64,000 bases of DNA from Bacteroidota bacterium (GCA_037441525.1 JBBISA010000001.1:151198-215197), one strand, 5' to 3'; counted from the first letter of the stretch, positions 749 to 20,359 are shown. The notes: generated from the letters alone by a model not told the origin. Numbers and translations: made by a program.

Positions 749-1000
749 TCAGAAAGCCATTTTCCTGACCATTACATCATTCATCTGAAGTATTTCATTT
801 TCAAGTCTGAGGCATTCTTCCCTGTCGCCCATTAGTTCGAGCAGAATTAATCCTGCACTGCCCTGGTTGGGAATATCGAGCTCGTTCAACCCAATACGGG
901 TTTTAATAGTGCAACCATACTTACTGAAAATTTTCTGAAGTTTCAGTGCATTTTTTTCTCTTTCTTTTACCAGTACCCCCAGTATAACAAGCTGTTCCAT
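749..1000 (-). CDS. TM1266-like small putative iron-only hydrogenase system regulator (ACT/NikR-C-like fold), paralog B
   Basis: 83-aa ORF with the pattern ILGVLV...TRIGLNEL...GLILLEL.GD...C..L. This matches my recollection of the TM1266 family found next to hydEFG genes. It lies next to hydG. Confidence 0.65.
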   Translation of the reverse strand: MEQLVILGVLVKEREKNALKLQKIFSKYGCTIKTRIGLNELDIPNQGSAGLILLELMGDREECLRLENEILQMNDVMVRKMAF

Positions 1001-1545: not shown

Positions 1546-2973
1546 TTAGAAATACAAATCGCGCCGGCCTTCCCTGATAAACTGAAGCTTCTCTTTGAGA
1601 TTTTCTATGCTTTGATGAGCCTGCAATTCGTTAAGTTTTTCATCAATAAGTCTGTAACCTTGTTCTTTGGTTGCCGGCGGGGCATAATCTTCAAGATATT
1701 CGGCCATGGTAAGCAAGGCATTGGGCGAACAAAAACGTTTTATAAAACCCGGAACTGAAAACTCCATAAAGTGTTCGCCGGTTCTGCCAAGACGATAACA
1801 TGCAGTGCAGAATGAAGGGATGTAACCGGTTGATATCAACTCGTCCATAATTTCGTTCAGAGAACGATTGTCGTTTATCTGGAATTGCTCCATGGTAAGG
1901 TCCTGATTTTCTCGCTTCCCTTTGGAGTAACCGCCCAATTCTAGATTAGTGCCACCATCAATTTGCGAAACGCCAAAACGTAAAACCTGATCGCGAATGT
2001 TTGCAGGTTCGCGTGCAGTAAGTATCATACCGGTATATGGCACTGCAAGGCGCAGAATAGAGACAAGCCTTACAAACTCATCATCCTTTACAAGGTGGCT
2101 ATGGTCGATGTTAAGGTCCAGTGCATTCTGGATACGCGGAAAACTGATGGTATGAGGGCCAACATTATAAACTGCTTCGAAATGGTTTACATGTCTTACA
2201 AGTCCCATTACTTCGAAACGCCAGTCGTACAGCCCAAACAATGCCCCGATACCTACATCGTCGATACCTGCTTCCTGAGCTCGGTCGAGTGCGGTTAAAC
2301 GCCACTCATAATTGCGCTTTACTCCGCCCAGGTGAACCTTAGCATAGGTAGGTTCGTGATAGGTTTCCTGAAAAATCTGGAAGGTGCCAATTCCTGAGTC
2401 CTTTATGGTTCTGAAACCAGGAATATCGAATGGCGCGGCATTGATGTTAACCCGCCTAATTTCACCATTGATGTGTTTTACTCCATAAACAATTCGAACG
2501 GTTTCGGCAATAAATTCAGCCGAATACTTAGGATGCTCTCCATATACAAGAATAAGTCGTTTGTGCCCCTGATCAATAAGAGCAGTGGTTTCCTGTTTAA
2601 GTTGCTCCTCGTTAAGGGTTATCCTTTTCATCCCTTTGTTTTCGGACCTGAACCCGCAATACTGGCAATTGTTGGTGCATAGGTCGCCCACATAAAGAGG
2701 GGCAAACAAAACAATACGTTCGCCATAAACTTTCTTTTTGAGGGTACGTGCGCCCTCTTTGATCTCTTCTACAAGGTCGGGATCGGTGGCATTGATCAAT
2801 ATTGCTGTTTCCTCGAGGGAGAGTCTTTTCTTGTCGAGCGAAGCCTGAATAACTTCGCGAACACGACTTTTATCAGTCTTTATGGTATTAATGTAGCTCC
2901 AAATCTCATTGGGGTCGATAAAAGGTTTCATCCTTTCATCGCGAATTTTATATATTTCGGGGTGGTATATCAT
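1546..2973 (-). CDS. hydG: [FeFe]-hydrogenase H-cluster radical-SAM maturase HydG
   Basis: 475 aa. It has the radical-SAM motif CTNNCQYC (C-x3-C-x2-C). It also has the HydG-specific C-terminal motif C-x2-C-x22-C (CTACYRLGRTGEHFMEFSVPGFIKRFC), which distinguishes HydG from ThiH. The length is typical for HydG. Confidence 0.9.
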   Translation of the reverse strand: MIYHPEIYKIRDERMKPFIDPNEIWSYINTIKTDKSRVREVIQASLDKKRLSLEETAILINATDPDLVEEIKEGARTLKKKVYGERIVLFAPLYVGDLCTNNCQYCGFRSENKGMKRITLNEEQLKQETTALIDQGHKRLILVYGEHPKYSAEFIAETVRIVYGVKHINGEIRRVNINAAPFDIPGFRTIKDSGIGTFQIFQETYHEPTYAKVHLGGVKRNYEWRLTALDRAQEAGIDDVGIGALFGLYDWRFEVMGLVRHVNHFEAVYNVGPHTISFPRIQNALDLNIDHSHLVKDDEFVRLVSILRLAVPYTGMILTAREPANIRDQVLRFGVSQIDGGTNLELGGYSKGKRENQDLTMEQFQINDNRSLNEIMDELISTGYIPSFCTACYRLGRTGEHFMEFSVPGFIKRFCSPNALLTMAEYLEDYAPPATKEQGYRLIDEKLNELQAHQSIENLKEKLQFIREGRRDLYF

Positions 2974-3053: not shown

Positions 3054-3863
3054 TTAGGTTGACTGAATTTTACTGGTAGAAATTACTTCCGGGGCCAGGT
3101 AGTCAAGTTCAACAGTCAATCCGTCGTAAGCAAGAAAAACATTGGAAGGCAGGGATTGCTGTATCGTTTTATGGATTCCGATGAAGTGACTCAGATGGGT
3201 TATGTAGGCTTTCCCGGGATTGATTTCGGCTATTACTTCAAGGGCCTCTTCCAAAGAAAAGTGGCTGATATGTTTCGATTTTCGCAAGGCGTTGATAACG
3301 AGAATTTCAGAACCTTTCAATTTTTCCTTTTCCTGGGGCGAAATATAATTGGCATCGGTGATATAAGAAAAATTGCCAATGCGGAAACCAAAAACCGGCA
3401 ATCTGTGATGCAAAACTTCGATGGGCATGAACTCTACCCCTTCGGCAAAAAAACTTTCGTTGCCGATAATATGAAATTCGAGCTGGGGGGCTCCAAAGAA
3501 TCGTTTTTCGGTAAATATATAAGGAAACTCGCGATGAATGGAATCGATCACTTCCTGACTGGCAAATATGTCTACGGTTTTATTCAATACATAATTGAAT
3601 GCTCTCACATCGTCGAGACCTGCAATATGGTCGCGGTGCCCGTGGGTAAAAATAATGGCAGTAATATCATCTACTTTCTCTCTGATCATCTGATACCTGA
3701 AATCTGGGCCGCAATCGATAACAAAATTATGTCCTCCCACCTTAATAAGCACCGAAGTACGCAGCCGCCGGTCGTGGGGATCGGCACTGCTGCACACATC
3801 GCAATTACAGGCAACAACCGGCACCCCGGTTGATGTGCCGGTGCCCAGAAAAATTACTTTCAT
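3054..3863 (-). CDS. MBL-fold metallo-hydrolase (PhnP-like)
   Basis: It has the HxHxDH motif (THGHRDH) and an N-terminal GTGTSTGVP...CNCDVC motif. The start was moved to the internal ATG (MKVIFLGTG) at 3863. A paralog lies at 47825..48598. Confidence 0.8.
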   Translation of the reverse strand: MKVIFLGTGTSTGVPVVACNCDVCSSADPHDRRLRTSVLIKVGGHNFVIDCGPDFRYQMIREKVDDITAIIFTHGHRDHIAGLDDVRAFNYVLNKTVDIFASQEVIDSIHREFPYIFTEKRFFGAPQLEFHIIGNESFFAEGVEFMPIEVLHHRLPVFGFRIGNFSYITDANYISPQEKEKLKGSEILVINALRKSKHISHFSLEEALEVIAEINPGKAYITHLSHFIGIHKTIQQSLPSNVFLAYDGLTVELDYLAPEVISTSKIQST

Positions 3864-3899
3864 TTTGTTGCCTGCAATCATAATCAAGGGGTATTTGCA

Positions 3900-4871
3900 T
3901 TAATAGATTAACTCGTCAACATCTTCTCTTGCTTCAATCACTTCATCATTATCAATAGTAAAATCGTAAAATATCTCGCTCCCCTTTATTTTCTTATAAA
4001 ATAAAATTGAACCTTTTTCTCCTTCCAAATTGTGTTTGTCATACAAGAGTGAAAAATCAATTACAGGTTGTCCATTGGTTTCAGAAATTACAGTCATCGA
4101 TTTAAGCATTTTGCCATTTACCAGTAGATTGGTGGCATAAATTCCTTTGGGAGGTATCAGTTTTTCTTCTTCTTCAATGGACATATTAAAATACCTGCCC
4201 CTCGCTCCAGACAGCACAGGACTCACATTATCAGTAATATTGCCAGTTATAATGTATTGATAGTCTAGGTAAGCGTTAGCCCTCATAATATTGCCTTCGA
4301 GAAGGGCTTTTCTGATTTTGGTTGAGCTTACGGTCTCATTCTCAATATCTTTAAGCGGAATATCTTCTACCTTAAAACCCATTTTGTTGCTAAGATCATA
4401 CAGATAGGAAAAATCGCCCGAACGGTTGTAACCGAAATGGTGGTTGTGGCCCACAATAATAACTCGGGCATCCAGATGCCCGATAAGTATTTTTGTTATA
4501 AAATCGTGGGATGAAGTTTTGGAAAATTCTACCGAAAACGGTATAATGACGAGGTTATCGAGCCCGGTTTGGGAAAGCAATTCTATTTTTTCTTCCTGCG
4601 AATTAATTAGTTTTAGGTCTTTCTGGTCGGGATATAGCACCTTTCTGGGGTGCGGATGGAAAGTTACCAGGCATGAATGGCCATTGATTTCCCGGGCAAG
4701 ATGATTCAACCTGTCAATTATGGTTTTGTGCCCTATATGCACGCCATCGAACGATCCGGTTGTGACAACGGTATTTCTGATTATTCCGGCAGCTTCCAGT
4801 GTATCCTTAAAAACTTTCATGTGTGCAGGTTTGGTGGTGCATATAAAATGTTGATTCAAAGATAATTCCAT
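3900..4871 (-). CDS. ribF: Bifunctional riboflavin kinase / FAD synthetase
   Basis: It has the N-terminal nucleotidyltransferase motif GSFDGVHIGH and a C-terminal riboflavin kinase domain, at about 320 aa. Its ATG overlaps the rex stop codon (TAATG), although an internal start at 4820 is also possible. Confidence 0.9.
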   Translation of the reverse strand: MELSLNQHFICTTKPAHMKVFKDTLEAAGIIRNTVVTTGSFDGVHIGHKTIIDRLNHLAREINGHSCLVTFHPHPRKVLYPDQKDLKLINSQEEKIELLSQTGLDNLVIIPFSVEFSKTSSHDFITKILIGHLDARVIIVGHNHHFGYNRSGDFSYLYDLSNKMGFKVEDIPLKDIENETVSSTKIRKALLEGNIMRANAYLDYQYIITGNITDNVSPVLSGARGRYFNMSIEEEEKLIPPKGIYATNLLVNGKMLKSMTVISETNGQPVIDFSLLYDKHNLEGEKGSILFYKKIKGSEIFYDFTIDNDEVIEAREDVDELIY

Positions 4872-5518
4872 TAGTGATTATCGGGCTCATGCTTTACCAT
4901 GAAAGCAAGTTTTTCGAGGGATGTAATGATGTCGTATTCCACGAGGTAGATATTTTCGGGAACAGTAAGGGGTACTGAAGTATAATTAAGGATGCCTTTT
5001 ATTCCGGCATTTATAATCAATCGGGCTGCTTCGTGCGCGCCTTCGGGCGCTACAGTAAGTATAGCTATTCTGATGTCTTCCTTTGGGGCTATTTCGGCGA
5101 TTGAATGGATGTGGTGGCAGGGCACCCCGGCAATGATGCGTTTGGTTTTCTGGGTGTCATTATCGAAGGCAGCTACAATCGACAGGCGGTCTCTTTTTCC
5201 GGAAAAATAACTCGTAATGGCCCGACCCAGATTTCCCATCCCCACAATAGCCACATTCAGGGGCTTGTCACTATCTATAATACTGCCAATAAGCTTTACA
5301 AGGTCTTTGATGATGTAACCTTTACTTTGGCTTCCTGAATAGCCAATTAGCATAAGGTCGCGGCGCACCTGCACAGATGTAAGGTTCATCATTTTGGCAA
5401 GCTCATGGGAGTATACGTTGGCTTTGCCCTGGTTGATTGTGTTGTATAGTATTCTACGATATTGGCTTAACCGTTCGATAGTTTTACCGGGTAGTTCATG
5501 TATTTTTTTGGAATCCAT
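4871..5518 (-). CDS. rex: Redox-sensing transcriptional repressor Rex
   Basis: 215 aa. It has an N-terminal winged helix (ERLSQYRRIL...SHELAKMMNLTSVQVRRDL) and a Rossmann NAD(H) fold (VAIVGMGNLGRAI). Confidence 0.9.
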   Translation of the reverse strand: MDSKKIHELPGKTIERLSQYRRILYNTINQGKANVYSHELAKMMNLTSVQVRRDLMLIGYSGSQSKGYIIKDLVKLIGSIIDSDKPLNVAIVGMGNLGRAITSYFSGKRDRLSIVAAFDNDTQKTKRIIAGVPCHHIHSIAEIAPKEDIRIAILTVAPEGAHEAARLIINAGIKGILNYTSVPLTVPENIYLVEYDIITSLEKLAFMVKHEPDNH

Positions 5519-5553: not shown

Positions 5554-6678
5554 TTAGTTGGCAGGAAACTTAAGGGTAAATGTACTTCCTGCATCGGGTT
5601 TGCTCTCTACCTGGATGGTGGCGTTGTATAGGTCGGCAATTTTCTTTACCAAAGAAAGGCCCAAACCTGTTCCGCTGATGTTTTTGGTTTGCTCGCTTTT
5701 TATGCGAACAAACTCTTCAAAAAGTTTTTCTATATCCTCTTCCTTCATCCCTATACCTGTATCAGTAACACTTAATAGCACCGAGTCATCGTCATCTTTT
5801 CTGATGTCTATATCTATTCGACCACCATTTTTGTTGTATTTCACAGCATTTGATACAAGATTATTGATTACAATCTCCAATTCCTGACGGTCGGCTCTGA
5901 GAGAGATATTTTCGTTGCAGTTGAGATGGATGTCAACATCTTTCTGGATACTCATGGGTTGCATGATATCAATGGATTGCCGGGCGATTTCGCTTAAAAA
6001 AACAGTTTTAATGTTGCGTGCTTTTTTGCCTGATTCGATGCGGGTAAAGTCGAGAAGATCAAGGATAAGGTTTCGCATTTCCTGCACTCTGGCCATGCTC
6101 CGGTTTATCATTTCAGTATAATCGCCCAGGTAGGGACCATTTCTTTTTTCAAGCATCAGTTTCAGGTAACCTTCAACCGCGTTGAGAGGTGATTTTAACT
6201 CGTGCGAAAGCACTGAAAGAAACTGAAAGCGTATTTGCTTGCCTTCTTGTTGCATTTTGGCGGTTATACGCCTTAAAAAGAGTTGTTTTGCAATATTTTC
6301 GAGACAACTACGAAGCTCTTTTGGGGTAAATGGTTTGGGTACAAAATCGTATGCGCCGCTTTTGGTAGCCTTTACGGCCATATCGAGTGATGCATAAGAA
6401 GTAATCATAACCACTATTGCTTCAAGGGCCTGAGAATTAATATATTCAAGAACTTCAATTCCTTGAATCCCTGGCAGTTTGTTATCGAGAAGAACTATAT
6501 CGAAAATATAGTTGTCGAGCAATTCAATGGCTTCTTCCCCGCTTTCGGCTTCATGCACTTCAAACTCAAAATCTTCATCCATAAAGGGATAGCTGACTGA
6601 AAAACTTTCCAGTATGCGCTTTATTCCACTCCTGATTCCCAATTCATCATCAACTACCAAAAGATTGAGTTTGCCCAT
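5554..6678 (-). CDS. Receiver-histidine kinase fusion (REC-HisKA-HATPase)
   Basis: The N-terminal REC domain shows LLVVDDE...DIVLLDNKLPG...KPF. The H-box is SHELKSPLNAV, the N-box is NAVKYN, G1 is DTGIGM and G2 is GTGLGL. There is no transmembrane segment and no DNA-binding domain. Confidence 0.85.
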   Translation of the reverse strand: MGKLNLLVVDDELGIRSGIKRILESFSVSYPFMDEDFEFEVHEAESGEEAIELLDNYIFDIVLLDNKLPGIQGIEVLEYINSQALEAIVVMITSYASLDMAVKATKSGAYDFVPKPFTPKELRSCLENIAKQLFLRRITAKMQQEGKQIRFQFLSVLSHELKSPLNAVEGYLKLMLEKRNGPYLGDYTEMINRSMARVQEMRNLILDLLDFTRIESGKKARNIKTVFLSEIARQSIDIMQPMSIQKDVDIHLNCNENISLRADRQELEIVINNLVSNAVKYNKNGGRIDIDIRKDDDDSVLLSVTDTGIGMKEEDIEKLFEEFVRIKSEQTKNISGTGLGLSLVKKIADLYNATIQVESKPDAGSTFTLKFPAN

Positions 6679-6687
6679 GCCAACCGA

Positions 6688-7086
6688 TTATATTTTGAGA
6701 AGTTTATTGATTTCCTTTTGCAACTGGTCCATCCTGATACCTTTATCCAGAAACATATCGGCCTTGATCCACTCCCGGTTTTCATCCGATTCCACATCGA
6801 AAAGAAGTCCTGTTTCGGCGGTTACTGCCGAAGCAATAATGATTGGAATATCGGGGTATTTGTTCTTTATAATATGGCACAGAATAAAACCTGTATCCTG
6901 GTTTTCCATCATCAAATCGAGGATAGCCAGATCGGGCTTCATTTTCTCAATAAAATCAACTGCTTCCTTTTGCGACGATGCTTCTGTTACATTAAAACCC
7001 ATATCGTTTAGCGCTATACCGAGCTGAAAAAGGTAATCTGGGTCATCGTCAACAATAAGAATTTTCTTTTTTTCTATTTTTAGCAT
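6688..7086 (-). CDS. Single-domain response regulator (REC only)
   Basis: 132 aa with KILIVDDDPD...DLAILDLMME...DKG. No output domain is present. Confidence 0.85.
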   Translation of the reverse strand: MLKIEKKKILIVDDDPDYLFQLGIALNDMGFNVTEASSQKEAVDFIEKMKPDLAILDLMMENQDTGFILCHIIKNKYPDIPIIIASAVTAETGLLFDVESDENREWIKADMFLDKGIRMDQLQKEINKLLKI

Positions 7087-7120
7087 TTTACCTTAGTTTT
7101 TACAAGTCCTTTTTATTTTT

Positions 7121-9151
7121 TTAAATTGCCCGTGCATTTTGCGCCACACGTGGCAACAAAACCATGAAGCTCGTGCCTGTTTGGCCTTTTTGCGGGTTGT
7201 CGTTTGATTCTACCTTAATATTTCCGTGGTGCATTTTCACAATTCCATAAATTATAGGCAATCCCAAACCTGTACCCTTACCGTCTTCCTTGGTAGTGAA
7301 AAAAGGTTCGAACATCCTTTCCATGTTTTCAGTCGAAATACCTGTACCAGTATCCCTGATAATAAAAACAAGTTCGTTGTCATTACCGGTAGCATCTTCA
7401 ACATTTATAGTCAACCTGCCACCCGATGGCATTGCATCAATGGCATTTTTAATCAGGTTAGAGAAAACCTGTACCATTTGATCGTGATCGCATTGTAAAA
7501 TCTGCTCCTGAGTTCTTATTTCAATAATCAGGTCGATGTTTTGGGGCATTACCAATGCTTTCATACTGTTCTTAATAAGGCTGCGGATATTTACCTCTGC
7601 AATGTCCACCTTGCTTTTTCTGGCAAAGTTAAGCAAACCGCCCACTATTTTCTTGCACCGGTCGGCCTGGTCAACAATAAGTTTCAGGTCTTTGTAATGA
7701 GGCGAATCGGGTTCAATTTCGTCGAGCAAAAGGTGGGCGTACATTATAACAACACCAAGCGGATTATTCACTTCGTGGGCAATACCCGCAGCAAGCTGGC
7801 CCATTGATGCCAGTTTTTCGCTTTGTTTAAGTGCCGCCTGGGTTGATGCCAGTTTTTTATTGCTAATATCGAGCTCTTTTATGTACTCATGCAGTTTATC
7901 GATGGTTGATGGCAGGCACATTTCGGTTTCAGCTATGCCTTTCAAAATGGCAATGGCATGTTCGTGGCACGTATCGTAGCCACATGCAGTACAGTTTAGC
8001 TCATCTTCCGGGCTTTTTATCCCAAGCCTTAACTTTACATTTTTTATTTCTTCTTCCGAAATATCAGTGCTGAACCGCTGATCGTCGGCAATAAAATAAC
8101 GGCTAAGGTCGGTATTGCGAAATTTTTCAAAATCATTTTTCCAGTTCTCTTGTCCTAACCGGGCAAACTGCCGCTTGGCAAAGTTGCTTATGCTTTTGCG
8201 CTTGAAAAAAAACTTGCTTCGATTACTCATGCCAGGTCCGTTAAAGCAGCCATTGCAGCAGAGCAAATCAAAAAGTTTCGCCTCAAGGTATCCCTCCTCA
8301 AATTCGCGCAATACTTCGGTAATGTCTTGCCGACCTTCAGCAACAACTATTTCACCGTTAAGGAAATCTTCCTCCAGATCGACAGTTTGAAGCATACCCC
8401 CACTAATGGGGAAAACAGAGCCTTTACCAGCCAATGGCGGGTCAAACTCAGATGGCTCAACTGCATCGTACTGAAGTTTTTTTTCATCGAACATTCGTCT
8501 CAGTTCAATAAATGAAATAACTTCATTCACCAACCCTTTAAACTGGTTATGTGTGGCCTCTGATTTTTTAGCAATACATGGACCAATAAATACTATTTTT
8601 AGGTCATCACCATGAATCCGCCTGAGCACTTTTGCCGTAGCTATCATGGGCGATACAATGGGAGCCAATGAGCGCACCACCTGTGGATGATGTTTCTCAA
8701 CATAGGTTACAATGGCTGGGCAACTTGTTGAAATATAAGGCTGTTTATGGTTTAATTGAAGTAAAGCTTTGTATTGATTTGCCACTAATTCAGCTCCAAA
8801 AGCAACTTCATTTACATAGTCGAATCCCAGTGCCCTTATCATTCCCACCAGTTTTTGATAGTCAGGAATATCGATAAACTCTGCAGCAATACTTGGAGCA
8901 ATTATGGCGGCCACGATGTTTTCACTCTGAATTAGCTTTTTTACACTGTCAATGGCAAACAGGAACATTTTAGCATCACGATTACATACCTTAACACAGT
9001 TTCCGCAGGCAATACAACGCTCGGGCATGATTTCGGCCTGTCCGTTCATTATACGGATGGCCTTTGCAGGGCACTCGCGAACACAGGTATAACAGACCCT
9101 GCAGCGGTCTTTTACTGTGTAAACGAGCTGGTTCTTATAGTCCATTGCCAT
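7121..9151 (-). CDS. Sensory-type [FeFe]-hydrogenase-like protein fused to a histidine kinase (HydS-like::HisKA-HATPase)
   Basis: There are two N-terminal C-x2-C-x2-C-x3-C ferredoxin motifs. The H-cluster domain has sensor-type motif variants: TSCP instead of TSCCP, GPCIAKKSE instead of MPCxxKxxE, and CCNGCFNGPG instead of MACxxGCxxGGGQP. The HydS-type extra cluster motif C-x2-C-x4-C-x16-C is present (CTACGYDTCHEHAIAILKGIAETEMC). This is followed by a coiled coil, the H-box AHEVNNPL, the N-box KNAIDA, G1 DTGTGI and G2 GTGLGL. Confidence 0.85.
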   Translation of the reverse strand: MAMDYKNQLVYTVKDRCRVCYTCVRECPAKAIRIMNGQAEIMPERCIACGNCVKVCNRDAKMFLFAIDSVKKLIQSENIVAAIIAPSIAAEFIDIPDYQKLVGMIRALGFDYVNEVAFGAELVANQYKALLQLNHKQPYISTSCPAIVTYVEKHHPQVVRSLAPIVSPMIATAKVLRRIHGDDLKIVFIGPCIAKKSEATHNQFKGLVNEVISFIELRRMFDEKKLQYDAVEPSEFDPPLAGKGSVFPISGGMLQTVDLEEDFLNGEIVVAEGRQDITEVLREFEEGYLEAKLFDLLCCNGCFNGPGMSNRSKFFFKRKSISNFAKRQFARLGQENWKNDFEKFRNTDLSRYFIADDQRFSTDISEEEIKNVKLRLGIKSPEDELNCTACGYDTCHEHAIAILKGIAETEMCLPSTIDKLHEYIKELDISNKKLASTQAALKQSEKLASMGQLAAGIAHEVNNPLGVVIMYAHLLLDEIEPDSPHYKDLKLIVDQADRCKKIVGGLLNFARKSKVDIAEVNIRSLIKNSMKALVMPQNIDLIIEIRTQEQILQCDHDQMVQVFSNLIKNAIDAMPSGGRLTINVEDATGNDNELVFIIRDTGTGISTENMERMFEPFFTTKEDGKGTGLGLPIIYGIVKMHHGNIKVESNDNPQKGQTGTSFMVLLPRVAQNARAI

Positions 9152-9199: not shown

Positions 9200-10915
9200 C
9201 TATTTCAATACATCCCTTTTATGAAATTGGGTGAAAAATTCACTATCCAGTTCAGGATTTTGTGCTGCCAGCGAGTATTTTACCAAATCCTGGTTCAACC
9301 CTGCCATAATATTTGTTTTCAATTTTTCCAATTCCTGGGCCTGCTTTTTTCTCTGTTTTTGTTTGTCTGTATACATTACTATAGGTTGCCCGCCACCACC
9401 TGCACATCCGCCCGGGCAGGCCATTATCTCAATATAGTGTATATCGTTGCGACCTTCGGCTTTTAGCTGCTCCAGATATTTAGCAGTTTCTGCAATTCCG
9501 CTAACCCAGGCAAAACCATAATCATGTTTGCCTATTTTTACCTTCACTTCTCTTTTGCTACCAGGGTTTTTTGGGGGTGTGAAACGAAATGCACTGGCCG
9601 ATTTACCATTGACCATCAGATTCAACTGGTAAGCAACTGCTTCAGCTTTTCCGCCTGAGTATGACATCTGGAAGCCTGCTGATGAAGCATTGCCCTGGAG
9701 CATATCGGGTTCTTCGGGTTGAAGTTGAAGAATATTTAGTCCGAAACTCCTCATCATTCTTAAAAATTCTCTGACAGTGATAACGGCATCGGTTTCTGAA
9801 ATCCCTTTTTGGGTGTTTTCTTCGCGGGCTGCCTCAAATTTATTTGCCACACAGGCTGACAGTGCTACGGTGTATAGCCTTTCTGGCTCGGTATCCTTGC
9901 AGAGCTCATACTTTACAAGCCTTCCCATTAGCTGCTGTGGTGATTTTATGTTCGAAACATCAGGAAGCATTCCCGGCATAAACTCTTCGGCGTATTCAAC
10001 CCATGACGGACAGCATGATGAAAGCAACGGAACGGTAATTTCTTTTTCAACTCTTTCCTTCAGCCTTGATGCTTCAAGAATTATATTCAGATCACTGGCC
10101 ATTGCCGTATCAAAAACCTTGTTAAACCCTATATGTTTTAAGGCTGCGATGATAAGACCTTCGGGATTGTCGGTTGTTTTGATATTTAGATGTTCGGCTA
10201 CTGATGCAGTAAAACCTGGCGATATCATTGCCACCGTTGTTTTTTTCTGGTTGTTGATAGCTGATTGTACTTTTTCAATATGCGAAATATCGACCAGTGC
10301 ACCGGTGGGGCAATACATAATACATTGCCCGCAATCAATGCAACTCGAAACATTCAAACCTTTATTGAAGGCTGAGTTGACCCGGGTTTTGTTTCCTCTT
10401 GCTACAAATTCAATAGCAGTTACCAACTGCATTTCTTCGCAAACCCTGACGCATCGGTTGCATAAAATACATTTCGATGGGTCGCGATACACACTTGGGC
10501 TCGAATGGTCACGTTGTTCGCTGTTTTTTTTACTGTAATACCTTCTTTCCTTTACATGCAATTCTTCGGCAAGCCATTGCAATTCGCAGTTTCCGTTTCG
10601 CTCGCAGTATAAACAATCGTCGGGGTGGTTGGCCAATAACATTTCCACAATGGCTTTCCGGGCCTTTATTACCCTTTGTGTATTGGTTTTTACTATCATT
10701 CCGGGCTCTACAGGATAGGTGCATGATGTAATAAGGTCCCTTTTCCCTTCCACCTCAACCACACATAGCCTGCATGCGCCGGCTGGTGTAAATCCTGTTA
10801 TCTGACATAAGGTAGGAATTCTGATTCCATTGCGACGGAGTACAGTGAGAAGAATTTCTTCGTCCTGTACCTGCATCTGGGTATTATTTACGTTTATGTT
10901 AAAACTCATTGCCAA
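9200..10915 (-). CDS. hydA: [FeFe]-hydrogenase catalytic subunit, NuoG-like N-terminus (HydA of a HydABC complex)
   Basis: It has an N-terminal plant-type 2Fe-2S domain, a His-ligated cluster motif (HPDDCLYCERNGNC) and two 4Fe-4S motifs (CILCNRCVRVC, CIDCGQCIMYCP). The H-cluster L1 motif is SSCCPSW and L3 is IEIMACPGGCAGGGGQP. L2 is atypical (SACVANKFE). Confidence 0.85.
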   Translation of the reverse strand: MAMSFNINVNNTQMQVQDEEILLTVLRRNGIRIPTLCQITGFTPAGACRLCVVEVEGKRDLITSCTYPVEPGMIVKTNTQRVIKARKAIVEMLLANHPDDCLYCERNGNCELQWLAEELHVKERRYYSKKNSEQRDHSSPSVYRDPSKCILCNRCVRVCEEMQLVTAIEFVARGNKTRVNSAFNKGLNVSSCIDCGQCIMYCPTGALVDISHIEKVQSAINNQKKTTVAMISPGFTASVAEHLNIKTTDNPEGLIIAALKHIGFNKVFDTAMASDLNIILEASRLKERVEKEITVPLLSSCCPSWVEYAEEFMPGMLPDVSNIKSPQQLMGRLVKYELCKDTEPERLYTVALSACVANKFEAAREENTQKGISETDAVITVREFLRMMRSFGLNILQLQPEEPDMLQGNASSAGFQMSYSGGKAEAVAYQLNLMVNGKSASAFRFTPPKNPGSKREVKVKIGKHDYGFAWVSGIAETAKYLEQLKAEGRNDIHYIEIMACPGGCAGGGGQPIVMYTDKQKQRKKQAQELEKLKTNIMAGLNQDLVKYSLAAQNPELDSEFFTQFHKRDVLK

Positions 10916-10920
10916 AAGGG

Positions 10921-12870
10921 TTAATCGACTATAACAGCATTAAACTTACACACCTCAAAACAGGCATTACAGGCAATACATTTATCCTGCACAATAAAAT
11001 GTGGTTGCCGCGGAGAACCAATGATGGCATCCACAGGGCACTTTTTAAAACATGCTGTGCAACCGGTACACATATCCACATCAATGTTGTAGGTTCTGAG
11101 TTCGCGACATACCCCAGCCGGACATTTCCGCTCGAAAACATGTGCGTCGAACTCAGTTTTAAAGTTCGACAAAGTGTTGAGTATGGCATTTGGTGCCGAT
11201 TTGCCAAGAGAGCACAAACTTGAGTCCTTCATTACATCGGCCATATTTTTTAAATGCATTATGCCCTTGAAACGCTCAAGGGTTTGAAACGCATTTTCCT
11301 TCGAAGGCCTGCGGGTTGCTGATTCCACAATTTCGAGCATCAATGCTGTACCTTCGCGGCATGGAATGCATTTTCCGCAACTTTCATTTTTAAAGAAAGC
11401 CGTAAAAAAACGGGCCAGATCAAGCATACAACTGTCTTGGCCTACTACCACACAGGCTCCGCTTCCAAGTTGTGAACCCACCGAACGCAATTCCTGAAAA
11501 TCCACACGCGTATCAATAGTTTTTTCGGTGATATAACTCCCACTGTTTATACCCAGGATGATTGCTTTAAAGGGTGCAACTCCTTTCATGCCACCTCCGA
11601 TTTCTTCAACAATGGTCCTGAAGGTTATTCCCATTTCAACTTCAATGGTGCCATACCTCATTACTTTTCCGCTGAGGGTAAATAGCTTGGTACCTTTGCT
11701 TACCTTATTGCCGATGGTTTTAAACCAATCAGGCCCGTTTTTAATGATCAACGGCACATTTATAAGAGTTTCCAGATTGTTTACAATGGTAGGTTTATTC
11801 CATAAACCCTTTATTGCCGGGAAAGGTGGCTTGTAAACCGGCATCGCTCTTTTTCCTTCAATACTGTTTATCAGCGCGGTTTCTTCTCCGCACACAAAGG
11901 CCCTGGCTCCTTCTTTCACAATCACATCAAGGTTAACACCCGATTCAAAGATGTGATGCCCGATAATTCCAAACTCCCGGGCTTGTTTTATTGCTTCATT
12001 AAGTCTTTCAATTGCCAGTGCAAACTCGCCCCGGGTAAAGATGAATGCCTTGGAGGCTCCTATGGCGTAGGAAGCTATTAAAAGTGCCTCAATTAACTTG
12101 TGAGGATTGCTTTCCATTATCACCCTGTTCATATAACTGCCAGGGTCGCTTTCAACGGCATTACAAACGAAATACTTCTGGTCGCTCACCGCATTGAGCG
12201 ATATTTTCCATTTTTTACCGGCAAGAAAAGCTCCTCCGCCCCTTCCGGCAAGTTCACTCTCTTCAACAATATCGCATACCTGTGAGGGAGTATGGTGGGT
12301 AATTGTATCAGCAAAAGCCTGATAACCTCCTTTTGCAATGTATTGTTCTATCGAAACAGGGTCAATAATGCCACAATTTGCAGTAAGGATTTTTTTCTGT
12401 GGTGCAAAAAATGGCAAATCATTCATAAAAGGAACACCTTCCCAGAGTTGGTGCAATTCGTTGCGGTATTGCCCCAACACATGCTTTTCAGGGAGATTGT
12501 TATTGAGAATTTCATCCAAAAAAGATGGAACATCATCTTTGTAAACATTATGAAATGAAATTCTGGCCTTTCCCGGAAGTTGAATATCTACAATGGGCTC
12601 GGCAGCACAGAAACCGTTACAACCTCCTTTTATAAGGTCAATGTTCAGTCCGTTATCCGCAATGTACTTTTCAATTGCCAGGTAAGTTTTCAGCGCACCC
12701 GCAGCAACACCACAGGTTGCAGTGCCTACAAAAATCAACGGATTAGAAATGCGTTCAAGGGCAATATAAGACAGTTGCCTGGCAATAGCAGGGTCAGCAT
12801 CCCTTTGGGGATTAAGCAGAACCTTTTCGATAAGATACTGCTTTATTTGGGCAGGATCATTAATTTTCAT
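10921..12870 (-). CDS. hydB: NADH-binding flavoprotein subunit of the hydrogenase (NuoF-like)
   Basis: 649 aa. It has an FMN/NADH region (GRGGGAFLAGKKW), the N3-type cluster motif ESCGKCIPCREG, an N-terminal thioredoxin-like Cys motif (GGCNGFCAAEP) and a C-terminal 2x[4Fe-4S] ferredoxin (CTGCTACFKKCP, CIACNACFEVC). Confidence 0.9.
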   Translation of the reverse strand: MKINDPAQIKQYLIEKVLLNPQRDADPAIARQLSYIALERISNPLIFVGTATCGVAAGALKTYLAIEKYIADNGLNIDLIKGGCNGFCAAEPIVDIQLPGKARISFHNVYKDDVPSFLDEILNNNLPEKHVLGQYRNELHQLWEGVPFMNDLPFFAPQKKILTANCGIIDPVSIEQYIAKGGYQAFADTITHHTPSQVCDIVEESELAGRGGGAFLAGKKWKISLNAVSDQKYFVCNAVESDPGSYMNRVIMESNPHKLIEALLIASYAIGASKAFIFTRGEFALAIERLNEAIKQAREFGIIGHHIFESGVNLDVIVKEGARAFVCGEETALINSIEGKRAMPVYKPPFPAIKGLWNKPTIVNNLETLINVPLIIKNGPDWFKTIGNKVSKGTKLFTLSGKVMRYGTIEVEMGITFRTIVEEIGGGMKGVAPFKAIILGINSGSYITEKTIDTRVDFQELRSVGSQLGSGACVVVGQDSCMLDLARFFTAFFKNESCGKCIPCREGTALMLEIVESATRRPSKENAFQTLERFKGIMHLKNMADVMKDSSLCSLGKSAPNAILNTLSNFKTEFDAHVFERKCPAGVCRELRTYNIDVDMCTGCTACFKKCPVDAIIGSPRQPHFIVQDKCIACNACFEVCKFNAVIVD

Positions 12871-13366
12871 AGTCTGTTTCTGGATTTTGCCTGAAATAAC
12901 TGATTAAGTTTTTTACTGAATCCAAATCCAGGTTGGTATAGTATTGCTGGTTAATTTCAATAACCGGGGCAAGTCCGCAGGCCCCAATACATGATACTAC
13001 CTCAAGGCTGAACAAGCCTGATTTGTCAGTTTCGCCACTTTTAATTTTCAGGTGTTTTTCCAGTTCGGTCAATATGTTTGAAGAACCAGCAACATGGCAG
13101 GCAGTACCGTTGCACAGCCTGATATGATATTTTCCCTTGGGTCCGAACCTGAAATTATCATAAAATGTAGCTACCCCAAAAATTTTGTTAACAGAAATAT
13201 CGAGGTACTTTCCCACATGAATAATGATCTCTTCTGATAAAAATCCGAAATGGTCCTGAATTTTGTGCAACATGGGGATCAGATCGTCGCGTTGTCGGTT
13301 GGGAAATTGTTCAAAAATTACCGAGAGTTTCCTATCCATGGGTGTGTGTTGATAAATTCTTAACAA
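12860..13366 (-). CDS. hydC: [2Fe-2S] thioredoxin-like subunit of the hydrogenase (NuoE-like)
   Basis: 168 aa with the NuoE Cys pattern CNGTACH...SCIGACGLAPV. It overlaps hydB by 11 nt. Confidence 0.9.
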   Translation of the reverse strand: MLRIYQHTPMDRKLSVIFEQFPNRQRDDLIPMLHKIQDHFGFLSEEIIIHVGKYLDISVNKIFGVATFYDNFRFGPKGKYHIRLCNGTACHVAGSSNILTELEKHLKIKSGETDKSGLFSLEVVSCIGACGLAPVIEINQQYYTNLDLDSVKNLISYFRQNPETDYEN

Positions 13367-13447: not shown

Positions 13448-13455
13448 CAAATATA
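13448..13455 (-). promoter_or_regulatory. Candidate Bacteroidota -7 promoter box (TATATTTG) for hydCBA
   Basis: The minus strand reads TATATTTG, matching the TAnnTTTG consensus. It lies about 80 nt upstream of the hydC ATG. Confidence 0.35.
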
Positions 13456-13593
13456 AGAAAAATTATAAGTGCCAAGGGTTTATTTAAGGGGCAATCAGGC
13501 CAATTTAGACTTAATCTGATTCAGCATTAAGTGCCCGGGATATTTTGCTGTGAAGTTATTAGCATTTTAACCCGTAGATAATTGGATTATAGT

Positions 13594-13615: not shown

Positions 13616-13631
13616 GGTGAATAGGTTCACC
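13616..13631. promoter_or_regulatory. Candidate Rex operator (GGTGAA-TAGG-TTCACC)
   Basis: The 6-nt arms are perfect inverted repeats with 4-nt spacing. This matches the core GTGAA-N4-TTCAC of the Rex consensus TTGTGAA-N4-TTCACAA. A TTGTGAA half-site also lies at 13599..13605. The palindrome is immediately downstream of the putative -7 box. Confidence 0.5.
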
Positions 13632-13662: not shown

Positions 13663-13923
13663 ATGGTACAAAACGTTCAAACAATAGTAATATGTATGGG
13701 GAGCAGTTGCTTTTCGCGAGGCAATAAGAAAACGGTTGCATTTTTACAGCAATACCTTAAAGATCGAAAGCTTGAAGACCATGTTACTCTTAAAGGGGCA
13801 CATTGTATGGGGCATTGTGAGAAGGGCCCTGTAATTAAACTGGATAATGACTTATTTTTTTACTCCGATCAACAAAAACTTGAGGCCTTACTTGATAAAG
13901 CATTTAATGTTAAAGGAGCCTAA
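13663..13923 (+). CDS. Small thioredoxin-like [2Fe-2S] ferredoxin
   Basis: 86 aa. The Cys pattern is C-x4-C ... C-x3-C (CMGSSC ... CMGHCEKGP), typical of the NuoE-C-terminal/thioredoxin-like ferredoxin fold. Confidence 0.75.
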   Translation: MVQNVQTIVICMGSSCFSRGNKKTVAFLQQYLKDRKLEDHVTLKGAHCMGHCEKGPVIKLDNDLFFYSDQQKLEALLDKAFNVKGA

Positions 13924-14107: not shown

Positions 14108-15964
14108 ATGAAACTTATATCAATCGACCTCGATAAGTGTAATACTTCTTATGCCTGTGTAAGGGCATGCCCGGTAAAGGCTATTACCATCAATAAAAAA
14201 ACTGACCTTCCTGAAGTTAATCACGATCGATGCATAGGATGTGGTGGTTGTCTTGGGGTATGCCAGGCTGGTGCAGTATCATATAAAAGTTCAATAGATG
14301 AAACCCTTGAACTGCTTAAATCTGACCAACAGGTGGCTGCTATTGTTGATCCCAGCATCAGCGGCGAATTTCCGGATATAACCGATTACCGCAGATTTGT
14401 TGAAATGATTAGGGTTTTAGGATTCAACTATGTTAATGAGGTTTCCTTTGGTGTAGATTTGGTGGGTAGGGAATACAACAACCTGTTTACCAACTTTCGT
14501 GGGAAATATTACCTTACATCCAATTGTCCAACAGTAACAGCATACATTGAAAAGTTTTTTCCCGAAATGATCAACAATCTCAGTCCTATTGTTACCCCTA
14601 TGACCGCAACGGCTATGGTGGTAAGAAAGCTTTACGGGAAAGATATAAAGGTTGTTTTTATTGGTCCGTGCATATCGGCAAAGCACGAGGCAATCCGTCA
14701 TGATGGTGAAGCAAAAGTTGATGCAGTGCTCACCTTCCAGGAATTAAGGGAACTTTTTTCACGATTCAATGTAACGGAATCGAAAGTGGAATACTCCGAT
14801 TTTGACAAACCCATTGGCAACCTGGGATCACTTTATCCACTGAGTCGCGGAATACTCGCAGCGGCCGGCCTGGTCGAAAACCTGCTTGGTTCCGATATTT
14901 TTACTGCATCCGGAGCCGGAAACATCCTTGATGCTGTTCAGGAGTTTCATGCCAGGCCAGAAGCGGTAAAAAAACACTTCAATCTTTTTTATTGCGAAGG
15001 ATGTTTAATGGGCCCAGGTACCAGCAACACCAGCCATAAATTTCTCAGAAAAACCCTGGTCGTTGATTATTCACGCAAACGTCTTGAAAAATTTGACGAA
15101 CCAGAGTGGAATAAATACATGGCTGAGTTTTCTGAATTGCAACTTTCGCGTATATTTCTAAACGACGACCAACGCCTTGAAATGCCCTCAGATGACCACA
15201 TTGAAGAAATCCTTAAATCAGTAGGCAAAACACCCAACGAAAAAGGAGCATGTAGCGCTTGCGGATTCAGATCGTGCCGTGATTTTGCCATTGCGGTAAG
15301 CCAGGGCCTTTCAAAACCCGATACATGTCTTACATGGTCGCTCAAAAATAAACAGGATTACATTAAAACCCTGAAAACCAATAACGAAAAACTAAGGAAA
15401 CAACAGATTGAAGCAGAGGAAAACCAAAAACTTCTGAAGGCTGAAAATCAAAAAATCAAAATAAAGTCTGATACTATCTCCTCTTTGTTGCAAAATTTAC
15501 CCTCTGCAGCCGTTATTGTTGACGAAAAACTTAAGGTAATAGAATCTAATCAGTCATTTATCAATATCTTAGGTGATGATGCAAAACTTATAAACGATGT
15601 TATTCCCGGATTAATAGGGGCTGATCTTAAAACTCTCCTGCCCTATAATATCTATAATCTTTTCAGTTTTGTGCTTCAGAAAGATGAAAACATTATTAGC
15701 CGTGATATCCATTTTAATGATGGTTTGTTGAATATCAGTGTATTTTCATTAAAACCAAACAAAATTGTTGGTGCGGTATTAAGAGATATGTATGTTGCTG
15801 AAGTGAGGCAGGAAGAAATTATAAACCGTGTCAATGAAGTGATAGATGAGAACCTGAAAATGGTTCAGCAAATTGCCTTTTCGCTGGGAGAAGGGGCATC
15901 GAAAACGGAAAAAATGCTCAATTCAATAATTGAAACATACAAAAAAATTAAAAAGGCTGATTAA
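14108..15964 (+). CDS. Sensory-type [FeFe]-hydrogenase-like protein with C-terminal PAS domain (HydS-like)
   Basis: It has two N-terminal 4Fe-4S motifs. The H-domain carries sensor-type variants (TSNCP, GPCISAKHE, YCEGCLMGPG). The C-x2-C-x4-C-x16-C motif is present (CSACGFRSCRDFAIAVSQGLSKPDTC). A coiled coil and a PAS-like C-terminus follow (LPSAAVIVDEKLKVIESNQSF...). Confidence 0.85.
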   Translation: MKLISIDLDKCNTSYACVRACPVKAITINKKTDLPEVNHDRCIGCGGCLGVCQAGAVSYKSSIDETLELLKSDQQVAAIVDPSISGEFPDITDYRRFVEMIRVLGFNYVNEVSFGVDLVGREYNNLFTNFRGKYYLTSNCPTVTAYIEKFFPEMINNLSPIVTPMTATAMVVRKLYGKDIKVVFIGPCISAKHEAIRHDGEAKVDAVLTFQELRELFSRFNVTESKVEYSDFDKPIGNLGSLYPLSRGILAAAGLVENLLGSDIFTASGAGNILDAVQEFHARPEAVKKHFNLFYCEGCLMGPGTSNTSHKFLRKTLVVDYSRKRLEKFDEPEWNKYMAEFSELQLSRIFLNDDQRLEMPSDDHIEEILKSVGKTPNEKGACSACGFRSCRDFAIAVSQGLSKPDTCLTWSLKNKQDYIKTLKTNNEKLRKQQIEAEENQKLLKAENQKIKIKSDTISSLLQNLPSAAVIVDEKLKVIESNQSFINILGDDAKLINDVIPGLIGADLKTLLPYNIYNLFSFVLQKDENIISRDIHFNDGLLNISVFSLKPNKIVGAVLRDMYVAEVRQEEIINRVNEVIDENLKMVQQIAFSLGEGASKTEKMLNSIIETYKKIKKAD

Positions 15965-16023: not shown

Positions 16024-17205
16024 ATGGACGAATCGTTTTACATAGAAGTTGGAGTAAATCAGAAAAGCCATTTTGGCGAACGGATTTGTGGTGATGTTTT
16101 CCTTTCGAGAAAGGTTAAGGAGGAAAACAGGACAATTTTGGTACTTTCGGATGGTATGGGTCATGGTGTTAAAGCCAATCTTCTTGCCACTCTTACCGCC
16201 ACTATGGCTCTGAATTTTACCGTTGAGCATAAAGATGTCCATAAAATTGCCGAAATCATTATGAATACCCTGCCCGTTTGCAGCGAGCGAAAAATCAGCT
16301 ATTCCACATTCACAGTGGTTGATATTGAAAGTACCGGACAAACAACCATAATTAATTACGACAACCCCGAGTGCATAATTTTGCGAGGTGAGGAACTTCT
16401 CAAATCCCAATGGCATACCATAACCCTCGAAACAGAATCGCAAAACAAGGAAATCAGAGCATGTACCTTTAAAGCAAAGAAAGAAGACCGGATTATATTG
16501 CTTTCTGACGGCATCACACAATCAGGGCTTGGAAAAGGCAAATACCTACTGGGTTTTGGTTTGGAAAATACTCGCGAATTAGTTTTGTCCAAATTAAAGG
16601 AAAATGCGTCCATTTCTGCCGTAAAACTCTCAGGTGCTCTGGTTAGCAAAGCTCATAGCAACGACGATTATCAACCAAAGGATGATATAAGCACTGTTGT
16701 TGTTTACTTGCGCGAACCCCGAAAATTATTGCTTTGCTCAGGTCCACCCTTCGATACGGCCAAAGATGAATACCTGGCAAACAAAGTAAGAGACTTTAAC
16801 GGGAAAAAAATTTTATCCGGTGGCACCACTGTGGATATTGTGGCGCGTATTCTTAATACTTCTGTAGAAGATACGCTTGAATTCAACGATCCTGATTTGC
16901 CCCCGCTTTCCTACATGGAGGGGATAGACCTTGCCACTGAAGGCATTTTAACCCTGAGCAAGGTGAGTAATATACTCGAAAAATTCAATGAACGTACCGA
17001 ACTTGGCAGAGGCCCTGCAGACCTTATAGTTAAGATGCTGCTCGAAAGTGATGAAATTTACCTGTGTATCGGCACCGCAATTAACATAGCGCATCAAGAC
17101 CCCAACCTTCCGGTTGAATTAGAGATTCGAAGAAGTGTAGCAAGAAAACTATCAATTCAGTTAGAAGAGAAATTTCTTAAGGAAGTTTTTATTGAATTTA
17201 TATAG
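16024..17205 (+). CDS. PP2C/SpoIIE-family serine phosphatase with an uncharacterised ~160-aa C-terminal domain
   Basis: It has the motifs GDVF...LVLSDGMGHGVKA and ILLSDGITQSG, which carry the metal-binding Asp residues of SpoIIE-type PP2C. It lies 60 nt downstream of the hydS-like gene. Confidence 0.85.
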   Translation: MDESFYIEVGVNQKSHFGERICGDVFLSRKVKEENRTILVLSDGMGHGVKANLLATLTATMALNFTVEHKDVHKIAEIIMNTLPVCSERKISYSTFTVVDIESTGQTTIINYDNPECIILRGEELLKSQWHTITLETESQNKEIRACTFKAKKEDRIILLSDGITQSGLGKGKYLLGFGLENTRELVLSKLKENASISAVKLSGALVSKAHSNDDYQPKDDISTVVVYLREPRKLLLCSGPPFDTAKDEYLANKVRDFNGKKILSGGTTVDIVARILNTSVEDTLEFNDPDLPPLSYMEGIDLATEGILTLSKVSNILEKFNERTELGRGPADLIVKMLLESDEIYLCIGTAINIAHQDPNLPVELEIRRSVARKLSIQLEEKFLKEVFIEFI

Positions 17206-20324: not shown

Positions 20325-20359
20325 GGCCTTCGATGAAATATTTGAAGGCCATTATTTTT
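20325..20359 (+). terminator. Intrinsic terminator after the hybrid kinase gene
   Basis: The hairpin GGCCTTC-N12-GAAGGCC is followed by ATTATTTTT. It lies inside the 5' extension of the ribD ORF, which supports the downstream ribD start. Confidence 0.6.

Follow-up and report, generated by a model that had tools for sequence, protein, structure and literature searches.

We analysed a 64,000-nucleotide stretch of DNA (the window; GCA_037441525.1 JBBISA010000001.1:151198-215197) from an uncultured Bacteroidales bacterium, in which a sensory-type [FeFe]-hydrogenase domain is fused to a histidine kinase. An original prediction for this DNA had placed the fusion and two receiver (REC) proteins at positions 5,554 to 9,151, and the three open reading frames (ORFs) do lie there, all on the minus strand. 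The fusion protein, HydS-HK (7121..9151, 676 amino acids), is followed by a single-domain response regulator, the lone REC (6688..7086, 132 amino acids), and by REC-HK, a REC-HisKA-HATPase_c protein (5554..6678, 374 amino acids). What is new in our analysis is the conservation of this trio without an adjacent transcription factor, an apparently heptad-locked coupling of 47 residues between sensor and kinase, a C-x2-C form of the third H-cluster motif and a layout with two sensors around one hydrogenase operon.

Pfam finds in HydS-HK, from the N- to the C-terminus, a ferredoxin domain (Fer4 dicluster/Fer4_10, residues 11-56, 8e-9), a hydrogenase H-domain (Fe_hyd_lg_C, residues 79-306, 4e-49), a "putative Fe-S cluster" (PF04060, residues 385-414, 5e-8) and a complete kinase module (HisKA, residues 450-512, 1e-13; HATPase_c, residues 555-668, 1e-25). 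The translation contains every motif that the original prediction had quoted for it (STSCP, GPCIAKK, LLCCNGC, AHEVNNPL, KNAIDA, DTGTGI and GTGLGL). Homologues that match HydS-HK over its full length and in domain order stem from independent assemblies and form more than 100 clusters at 55-83% identity; overall there are hundreds of them, spread over several phyla. An identical protein is present on one independent contig, and genome assemblies of uncultured Bacteroidales yielded 48 syntenic loci. A mis-assembly of two genes, which had been named as a way in which the prediction could fail, is contradicted by the homologues, the synteny and the independent identical copy, and we reject it.

There is no dedicated NCBIfam model for HydS-HK. 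By sequence, the nearest PDB entries to the sensor half are TmHydA, TkHydA1 and CpI, and the nearest to the kinase half are ZraS (2.6e-30), LvrB and KinB. Structure prediction, one of the checks that had been proposed, agrees with this: in the AlphaFold model (mean predicted local distance difference test score 72) the N-terminal half resembles CbA5H, the HydA subunit of HydABC and CpI over 407-468 alignment columns, and the C-terminal half resembles ZraS. No HydS structure is among the PDB structural matches of the model.

The H-domain and the coupling helix of HydS-HK

All coordinates in this section are on the minus strand. HydS-HK begins with a 2x[4Fe-4S] ferredoxin domain (8972..9121, residues ~11-60), whose eight cysteines (C17, C20, C23, C27, C46, C49, C52 and C56) are kept in 119 of 120 HydS-HK homologues; the other one has a gap at these columns. 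The H-domain follows (8222..8917, residues ~79-310). We derived its equivalences to CpI from alignments of HydS-HK to the neighbouring HydA and, by HMMER, to TmHydA, TkHydA1 and CpI, and counted conservation among the same 120 close homologues. The careful alignment of the ligating cysteines that the original prediction had called for finds all four of them: C144, C192, C299 and C302 are equivalent to the H-cluster ligands C300, C355, C499 and C503 of CpI, and are invariant in 120 of 120 sequences. K195 and E198 (CpI K358 and E361) and the motif A85-P86-S87 are invariant as well. In CpI, K358, E361 and the APS motif contact the [2Fe] subcluster and hold it in place.

Three replacements in the H-domain are of the sensory type, as the original prediction had proposed. 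S143 stands at the position of the proton-relay cysteine C299 of CpI, and in the second sphere G190 and L297 stand at the positions of M353 and M497. Changes at these three positions are hallmarks of sensory [FeFe]-hydrogenases (PMC10055695). The loss of the proton-relay cysteine had been described as TSCP replacing TSCCP; the loss is real, but it is a substitution of Cys by Ser and involves no deletion. Further along the proton path of the CpI alignment, the equivalents of E279, E282 and R286 are Q, A and a gap, and that of S319 is retained.

Motif 3 of HydS-HK reads DLLCCNGCFNGPG and departs from the canonical ExMxCxxGCxxG spacing, with one residue deleted ahead of C302. The predicted CCNGC in place of MACxxGC is present, with the correction that the ligand pair is C299/C302; the extra cysteine, C298, aligns with CpI A498, which is not a ligand position. 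C298 would restore the x3 spacing. It is Cys in 116 of the 120 close homologues and Leu in four, and in distant homologues it is mostly not Cys. Among representatives of clusters at 50% identity, C-x-G-C is found in most kinase-fused proteins, and C-x-G-G-C is kept by many PAS-type group C proteins of ~580 amino acids. Since most kinase-fused representatives share C-x-G-C, the shortening of motif 3 is a trait of the lineage and not a defect of this copy.

Behind the H-domain lies the four-cysteine motif Cx2Cx4Cx16C (7916..7993; C387, C390, C395 and C412), which corresponds to the PF04060 match. It had been predicted, and we find it invariant in 120 of 120 homologues. The same motif has been described in TmHydS and TamHydS (PMC8163306). 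From the last cysteine of this cluster a signalling helix or coiled coil (7778..7915, residues 413-458) leads to the phospho-accepting His459. AlphaFold places helices at residues 413-431 and 437-457, directly after C412 and running to His459, and the a/d core of the coiled coil consists of L413, I417, L420, I424, L427, N431, L434 and L441.

In 248 of 264 homologues, the last cluster cysteine lies 47 residues from the phospho-accepting histidine. The 16 exceptions, all of them distant cluster representatives, have distances of 33 (three), 40 (four), 54 (four), 68 (one), 34, 38, 48 and 49 residues. Twelve of the 16 equal 47 plus or minus a multiple of seven and so keep the heptad register (binomial p = 7e-8), and two of the four off-register homologues have a different type of H-box. 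A fixed distance whose exceptions come in multiples of seven points to a rigid, register-locked coiled coil that would transmit the signal between Cys412 and His459. That a helical linker, in place of a PAS domain, runs straight into a complete HisKA/HATPase module had been predicted, and Pfam, the AlphaFold model and the Cys-to-His distances bear this out. A PAS domain, which is part of the M2f definition, was found in HydS-HK neither by Pfam nor in the AlphaFold model, and its absence separates subgroup C1 from the PAS forms.

The kinase consists of a DHp domain (HisKA, H459) and a catalytic ATP-binding domain (7148..7804), identified through Pfam, the PDB match to ZraS and NCBIfam. Its boxes are H459 within AHEVNNPL, NLIKNAIDA, DTGTGI, FEPFFTTK and GTGLGL, all invariant among homologues. 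The kinase core is nearest to the AtoS/ZraS type, with NCBIfam scores for AtoS and ZraS that stay below the cut-offs. We take the H-box HEVNN to fit the E/DxxN/T phosphatase motif.

The trio and the search for its output

The lone REC (Pfam REC, 3e-18) has an acidic pocket of D13-D15, the phospho-acceptor D57, S85/T88 and K114. REC-HK has D10-11, D64, T93 and K115 in its receiver, followed by H159 and intact N, G1 and G2 boxes. The receiver residues are at least 95% conserved among orthologues of both proteins, for the lone REC in 48 sequences (the window and 47 orthologues), and the catalytic residues of REC-HK are conserved too. According to NCBIfam the kinase core of REC-HK is PhoR/TorS-like. 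Since that of HydS-HK is AtoS/ZraS-like, the two kinases probably differ in which receivers they prefer.

The lone REC lies directly 3' of HydS-HK in all 44 close Bacteroidales loci that have sequence there, and REC-HK comes next in 38 of 41. In the remaining three (L029, L031 and L032) the order is REC followed by rex. These three lack the REC-kinase and all keep HydS-HK, the lone REC and rex, so the lone REC is the minimal partner of HydS-HK. The MBL hydrolase gene is missing from L029 and L031 as well; the sequence of L032 stops at rex. The lone REC is among the best-conserved proteins of the cluster, with 71-87% identity across close loci (HydS-HK 69-83%).

The trio extends far beyond this clade. 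We examined seven distant loci: L051, a relative at 56% identity, and L053 to L058, which include an Armatimonadota chromosome, a Calditrichia metagenome-assembled genome, a protein cluster labelled Deltaproteobacteria by NCBI and three others. All seven have the order HydS-HK, REC of 127-146 amino acids and REC-(PAS)-HisKA-HATPase, often with overlapping start and stop codons. In L053, L054 and L055, REC-HK has a Pfam match to PAS between REC and HisKA; in L056, L057 and L058 REC-HK is 488-500 amino acids long, and the extra length has no PAS match. The trio stands directly behind hydABC-type genes in five of the seven (L051, L054, L055, L056 and L057). In L058 such genes lie just downstream of the trio, and in L053 maturase genes lie upstream instead. 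Identity to the window across the seven loci is 42-56% for HydS-HK, 34-61% for the best-matching REC and 33-58% for the REC and kinase parts of REC-HK. The maxima come from L051, without which the ranges narrow to 42-43%, 34-46% and 33-43%. The two receiver proteins have thus diverged to a similar degree as HydS-HK, and the trio has therefore evolved as one.

The original prediction had stated that neither receiver protein carries a DNA-binding output and that the final target is not encoded nearby. Both statements hold: Pfam shows REC only in one protein and REC, HisKA and HATPase_c in the other, and a search of all window ORFs with REC and kinase profiles returned only three proteins, all known already, while Pfam on ten further large ORFs of the window revealed no regulator. 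Nor does any of the seven distant loci encode a DNA-binding response regulator within the trio or immediately behind it. Regulators do occur at a greater distance or in front. L056 and L058 have one separate kinase-regulator pair each, a few genes upstream: in L056 the regulator is of the OmpR type and lies before hydCBA, and in L058 it is an NtrC-type sigma-54 activator immediately in front of HydS-HK. L056 has two lone RECs. In L058 the trio is followed by a fusion of REC with a formate/nitrite transporter (FNT; 11145-12422 of that locus), which hints that outputs of the trio can be metabolic and not transcriptional alone.

A 910-amino-acid hybrid kinase with an HPt domain (17550-20282) had been proposed as part of the same relay, which we could not support. 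It sits between the PP2C gene described below and ribD in the sub-clade nearest the window only, at 40-62% identity; 16 more distant loci are without it and have ribD immediately after the PP2C gene. Being limited to one sub-clade and poorly conserved, it is a clade-specific insertion, and we reject it as a core part of the system. The term phosphorelay itself was too specific. The three trio proteins contain neither an HPt domain (Pfam) nor a Spo0B-like step, and the only HPt belongs to the hybrid kinase, to which the conservation of the cluster does not extend.

The hydrogenase operon and the second sensor

HydS-HK is embedded in a long string of minus-strand genes, hydC-hydB-hydA-HydS-HK-REC-REC-HK-rex-ribF-MBL hydrolase-hydG-two TM1266-like small proteins-Rrf2, which is syntenic across the clade. 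The intergenic gaps are short and hold no terminator-like sites. Pfam identifies hydC (12860-13366), hydB (10921-12870) and hydA (9200-10915) as genes of a HydABC-type (NuoE/NuoF-linked) [FeFe]-hydrogenase; from hydC through hydB and hydA to HydS-HK the gaps are -11, 5 and 48 nucleotides. The hydA gene is immediately before HydS-HK in all 46 close loci. No protein of the cluster is less conserved than HydA, at 52-72% identity (the sensor kinase has 69-83%), and no Fe_hyd_SSU domain was detected in the window copy. Residues 353-359 of the window HydA read LSACVANKFE where CpI has MPCTSKKFE. The change of K358 to Asn is common to the closest sub-clade (M[PA]CVANK); M353 to Ser and P354 to Ala occur in the window only.

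On the other side of the hydC promoter region three plus-strand genes run divergently from hydCBA: a thioredoxin-like [2Fe-2S] ferredoxin (13663-13923, 86 amino acids), a second sensory-type hydrogenase (14108..15964, 618 amino acids) and a PP2C/SpoIIE-type phosphatase (16024..17205, 393 amino acids; Pfam SpoIIE 7e-17, a PDB match to a serine phosphatase, syntenic). The arrangement is kept in all 35 loci with enough flanking sequence; the original prediction had missed the second sensor and its phosphatase. Judged by Pfam, BLASTP and AlphaFold, the second sensor has a ferredoxin domain, an H-domain, Cx2Cx4Cx16C, a helix of 60 residues and a PAS-like fold. The PAS-like fold is seen in the AlphaFold topology only; sequence searches for PAS found none. 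HydS-HK and the second sensor are paralogues, 39% identical by BLASTP over residues 15-447, and together with its PP2C neighbour the second sensor represents the phosphatase-linked arrangement of HydDB group C3. With the second sensor opposite HydS-HK, one hydABC operon is flanked by two types of H2 sensor, and Rex adds a third, NADH-dependent input.

The active site of the second sensor differs from that of HydS-HK. Its motifs read TSNCP, GPC and FYCEGC, with Asn (and not Ser) at the C299 position of CpI, and its C-terminal cluster is as in HydS-HK. Most of its relatives have Asp, Asn or His in place of C499: at residue 296, the C499 equivalent, the family has Asp in 21, Asn in 15, His in five, Ser in three and Cys in one of 45 sequences, the last being the window copy. 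The first ferredoxin motif of the family is mostly without its second cysteine. Such a family may bind an unusually ligated or degenerate cluster.

The region upstream of hydC contains conserved DNA elements, all read on the minus strand. A box TATATTTG at 13448..13455, ~84 nucleotides upstream of the hydC start and in a conserved alignment block, is a putative promoter of the Bacteroidetes -7 type, which we presume from the Bacteroides consensus TAnnTTTG. A palindrome TTAAT-N10-ATTAA (13511..13530) lies ~65 nucleotides upstream of this box. Relatives have the form TTAAT-N9-ATTAA; the constituent 8-mers of their palindrome block TTAATCTAAATAACATTAAG occur in 21-24 of 37 upstream regions, and the exact form in 18 of 37. 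There is also a further conserved GTTAATTTGCTAAC-like block, and we regard it and the palindrome as candidate operators. A Rex operator upstream of hydC was considered and rejected. A relaxed Rex-box scan of the window gave 51 matches against 44 +/- 6 in shuffled sequence, which is no excess. The exact Rex core GTGAA-N4-TTCAC does occur once in the window, as GTGAATAGGTTCAC at 13617-13630 between the divergent promoters, but because it is absent from all 35 related loci its significance is doubtful and we claim no Rex site.

The gene after REC-HK is rex itself (4871..5518; NCBIfam Rex, 200 bits, above the cut-off), which encodes a repressor that senses NADH/NAD+. It points in the same direction and is syntenic in all close loci and in L051. 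A RibF-like FAD synthetase (3900-4871) and an MBL-fold hydrolase (3054-3887) follow on the same strand, and the order rex-ribF-MBL is retained even in L051. RibD (20333-21418, plus strand) lies on the other side of the cluster, which is thus bracketed by flavin genes, possibly in connection with the FMN that HydB requires. At the far end of the string stand the H-cluster maturase gene hydG (1546..2973, minus strand; TIGR03955, 502 bits, above the cut-off), two tandem small proteins of the TM1266-like/CPF_0552 family (1047-1298 and 749-1000, minus strand; "iron-only hydrogenase system regulator, putative") and an Rrf2-family regulator (270-680, minus strand), which closes it. The TM1266-like pair and the Rrf2 regulator are syntenic in all relatives. 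The hydrogenase cluster is separated from dnaA (24198-25643, plus strand) by about 11 kb, which probably places the locus close to the chromosomal origin of replication. The sole Rfam match in the window is a tRNA (43339-43412, plus strand).

Signalling model, rival explanations and known systems

We think it fairly likely that HydS-HK is a cytoplasmic, dimeric sensor kinase with a slow sensory-type [FeFe]-hydrogenase as its input module. We infer the cofactor, the response to H2, the direction of phosphotransfer and the output as follows. H2 from the co-transcribed HydABC would equilibrate with the H-cluster of HydS-HK, and the H-domain and the C-terminal [4Fe-4S] domain next to it would thereby change in redox state or conformation. 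C412 would cap the fixed-register coiled coil into the DHp helix with His459, so that the balance between kinase and phosphatase activity could shift. The phosphoryl group would then pass to D57 of the lone REC, to D64 of REC-HK or to both. REC-HK might act as a second-tier kinase, and the lone REC through protein-protein contact or as a phosphate sink. The final target would lie outside the window, and we would expect hydrogenase expression or fermentative electron flow to be adjusted when H2 accumulates. Rex (NADH/NAD+) and the PAS-like second sensor with its PP2C phosphatase would probably give parallel inputs to the same locus. This model is favoured by the architecture and kinase boxes, the invariant H-cluster ligands and [2Fe]-subsite residues, the sensory-type replacements, the structural matches of both halves, the Cys412-to-His459 distance and the conserved trio. 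In addition, hydG belongs to the same gene string as HydS-HK, and the paralogue at 14108-15964 shares the element of a cluster plus a long helix, there ending in a PAS-like fold.

Several observations weigh against it. The invariant pair C299/C302 is spaced C-x2-C and not, like C499/C503 of CpI, canonically as C-x3-C, and no characterised enzyme is known to have such a motif 3. In CpI, M497L blocks proper insertion of the [2Fe] subcluster (cited in PMC10055695), and the authors who noted group C1 also in Hydrogenedentota hardly found standard H-cluster motifs in their C1 proteins (PMC11406978). We looked for hydE and hydF, and they are absent from the window, and no output regulator was identified. 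The AlphaFold model is poorly confident at residues 250-320 and in the linker, and our literature search found no purified group C1 protein. Finally, TamHydS has a C-terminal cluster that 1 atm H2 does not reduce (PMC13104023), and coupling in HydS-HK may hence be conformational instead of a redox switch of that cluster.

One could also argue that the H-domain holds a [4Fe-4S] cluster only, without the di-iron subsite and similar to Nar1/NARFL, and that HydS-HK uses its four or five Fe-S clusters to sense redox state (the ferredoxin pool) or damage by O2. This is the main rival to an H2 sensor, and we consider it unlikely. It would fit the spacing of motif 3, the Leu at the M497 position, the doubts about the Hydrogenedentota motifs and the lack of hydE and hydF in the window. 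It would also fit that a few distant family members (P0136 and P0168) are without ligand cysteines and that most proteins of the neighbouring paralogue family have Asp, Asn or His at the C499 equivalent. However, the equivalents of K358, E361 and the APS motif do not vary, though they serve the [2Fe] subsite alone, and the gene stands in one string with hydABC and hydG across many phyla. In addition, TamHydS has a native Leu at the M497 position and still forms the H-cluster (PMC8163306).

In another scenario HydS-HK docks on HydABC and reports electron flux via its N-terminal clusters, while the lone REC acts back post-translationally and there is no transcriptional output. The trio genes do sit tightly inside the hydABC operon, the lone REC belongs to the best-conserved proteins of the cluster, a REC-FNT fusion follows the trio in L058, and a DNA-binding response regulator is missing from the window and from the immediate surroundings of the seven distant trios. 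Nevertheless, we regard this scenario as quite improbable: a physical association with HydABC rests on no evidence, orphan regulators may exist elsewhere in the genome, and the intact catalytic core of REC-HK implies a further phospho-acceptor. That the fusion is an artefact of assembly or gene calling, or a decaying relic without function, has practically no chance of being right; the metagenome-type assembly is all that could be said for it, and the independent identical copy, the 48 syntenic loci, the hundreds of full-length homologues in several phyla and the invariant catalytic residues in both halves of the protein speak against it.

Within the model of an H2-sensing kinase we would also entertain a bolder and rather unlikely extension. 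The trio could be an ancient, phylum-spanning device for H2 signalling, in which the phosphorylated lone REC acts on HydABC or another metabolic protein and not on a transcription factor. In the Bacteroidales clade this device would operate beside the second H2 sensor with its PP2C phosphatase and its differently tuned active site, giving one operon two H2 thresholds, a His-Asp and a Ser/Thr readout, and Rex in addition.

To a specialist the architecture of HydS-HK is unsurprising; it is the conserved partners that sharpen an experiment on how sensory [FeFe]-hydrogenases transmit the H2 signal. TmHydS and TamHydS have neither a measurable output nor known partners. The 2026 study of TamHydS closes by calling for signalling partners (PMC13104023). 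The fusion makes H2 sensing assayable, as autophosphorylation and transfer to two defined receivers, and the 47-residue heptad helix is a concrete structural hypothesis that is open to mutation. The point at which fermenting Bacteroidales, and members of several other anaerobic phyla, cease to dispose of electrons as H2 is probably set by the system; this is relevant to sediments, digesters and guts. A genetically encoded H2 biosensor is a possible use.

Judged by its architecture and by published descriptions (PMC5037454, PMC7768429), HydS-HK is best classed as a further member of HydDB [FeFe] group C1. The original prediction had pointed to a histidine-kinase-linked subgroup predicted from genomes, of which no member had been characterised biochemically. 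The subgroup exists as group C1, "histidine kinase-linked (putative)" (PMC5037454), and in the literature we found no biochemical or genetic study of any group C1 protein; TmHydS and TamHydS are still the only sensory enzymes that papers of the years 2022 to 2026 name as characterised (PMC8924675, PMC13104023). In a 2022 review, the sensory role is considered putative for all of the group (PMC8924675). The closest published case is a C1 member of the Bacteroidales isolate Petrimonas mucosa, ING2E5A_0849, which adjoins Hnd/HydABC genes (PMC7768429). It likewise combines a sensory-type H-domain with a histidine kinase beside a group A hydrogenase of the bifurcating type, and nothing fundamental sets it apart from HydS-HK. 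We found no mention of REC or REC-kinase partners, or of a fixed 47-residue helix, in the literature on group C1.

The two characterised sensory enzymes resemble HydS-HK in different respects. TmHydS of Thermotoga maritima (group C, M2f), a putative sensor, shares two N-terminal [4Fe-4S] clusters, the lack of the proton-relay cysteine, Gly at M353 and Cx2Cx4Cx16C; unlike HydS-HK it has a PAS domain and no kinase, and its residues at the C299 and M497 positions are Ala and Ser, against Ser and Leu in HydS-HK (PMC10055695). TamHydS of Thermoanaerobacter mathranii (group D, M2e) shares the Leu at M497, the C-terminal four-cysteine cluster, the absence of PAS and a kinase-like ATPase, encoded by a gene nearby (PMC8163306, PMC13104023). 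It belongs to a separate phylogenetic group, however, has no fused signalling domain, and its C-terminal cluster is unresponsive to H2 (PMC13104023).

The HydS/HfsB system with a Ser/Thr kinase and a PP2C phosphatase in Ruminococcus albus and Thermoanaerobacterium matches the second sensor of the window and its PP2C neighbour (PMC5707799, PMC8924675). That route uses Ser/Thr phosphorylation and HydS-HK would use His-Asp transfer; in the window both flank one hydABC operon. Work by Zheng et al. in 2014 reportedly associates the HydS/HfsB system with Rex. The [NiFe] regulatory hydrogenases have an unrelated metal site and belong to an unrelated protein family, with sensor and kinase as separate proteins joined via PAS and a known NtrC-type DNA-binding regulator as output. 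They are alike in principle: in HoxBC-HoxJ-HoxA of Cupriavidus necator and in HupUV-HupT-HupR the histidine kinase in control of hydrogenase genes receives the H2 signal from a slow hydrogenase (PMC5707799). By this analogy, HoxBC-HoxJ-HoxA may be seen as the functional counterpart of the HydS-HK system.

Two further comparisons concern the linker and the trio. FixL and the engineered LOV kinase YF1 have a helical linker with heptad periodicity between sensor and DHp. YF1 (PDB 4gcz) is among the sequence matches of HydS-HK, whose linker is likewise in heptad register; the input is PAS or LOV in these kinases and a module of Fe-S clusters and H-cluster in HydS-HK. The bacteriophytochrome-ExsF-ExsG set, finally, is a branched or two-tier system without an adjacent DNA-binding regulator, and its layout of kinase, lone REC and REC-kinase is that of the trio described here.

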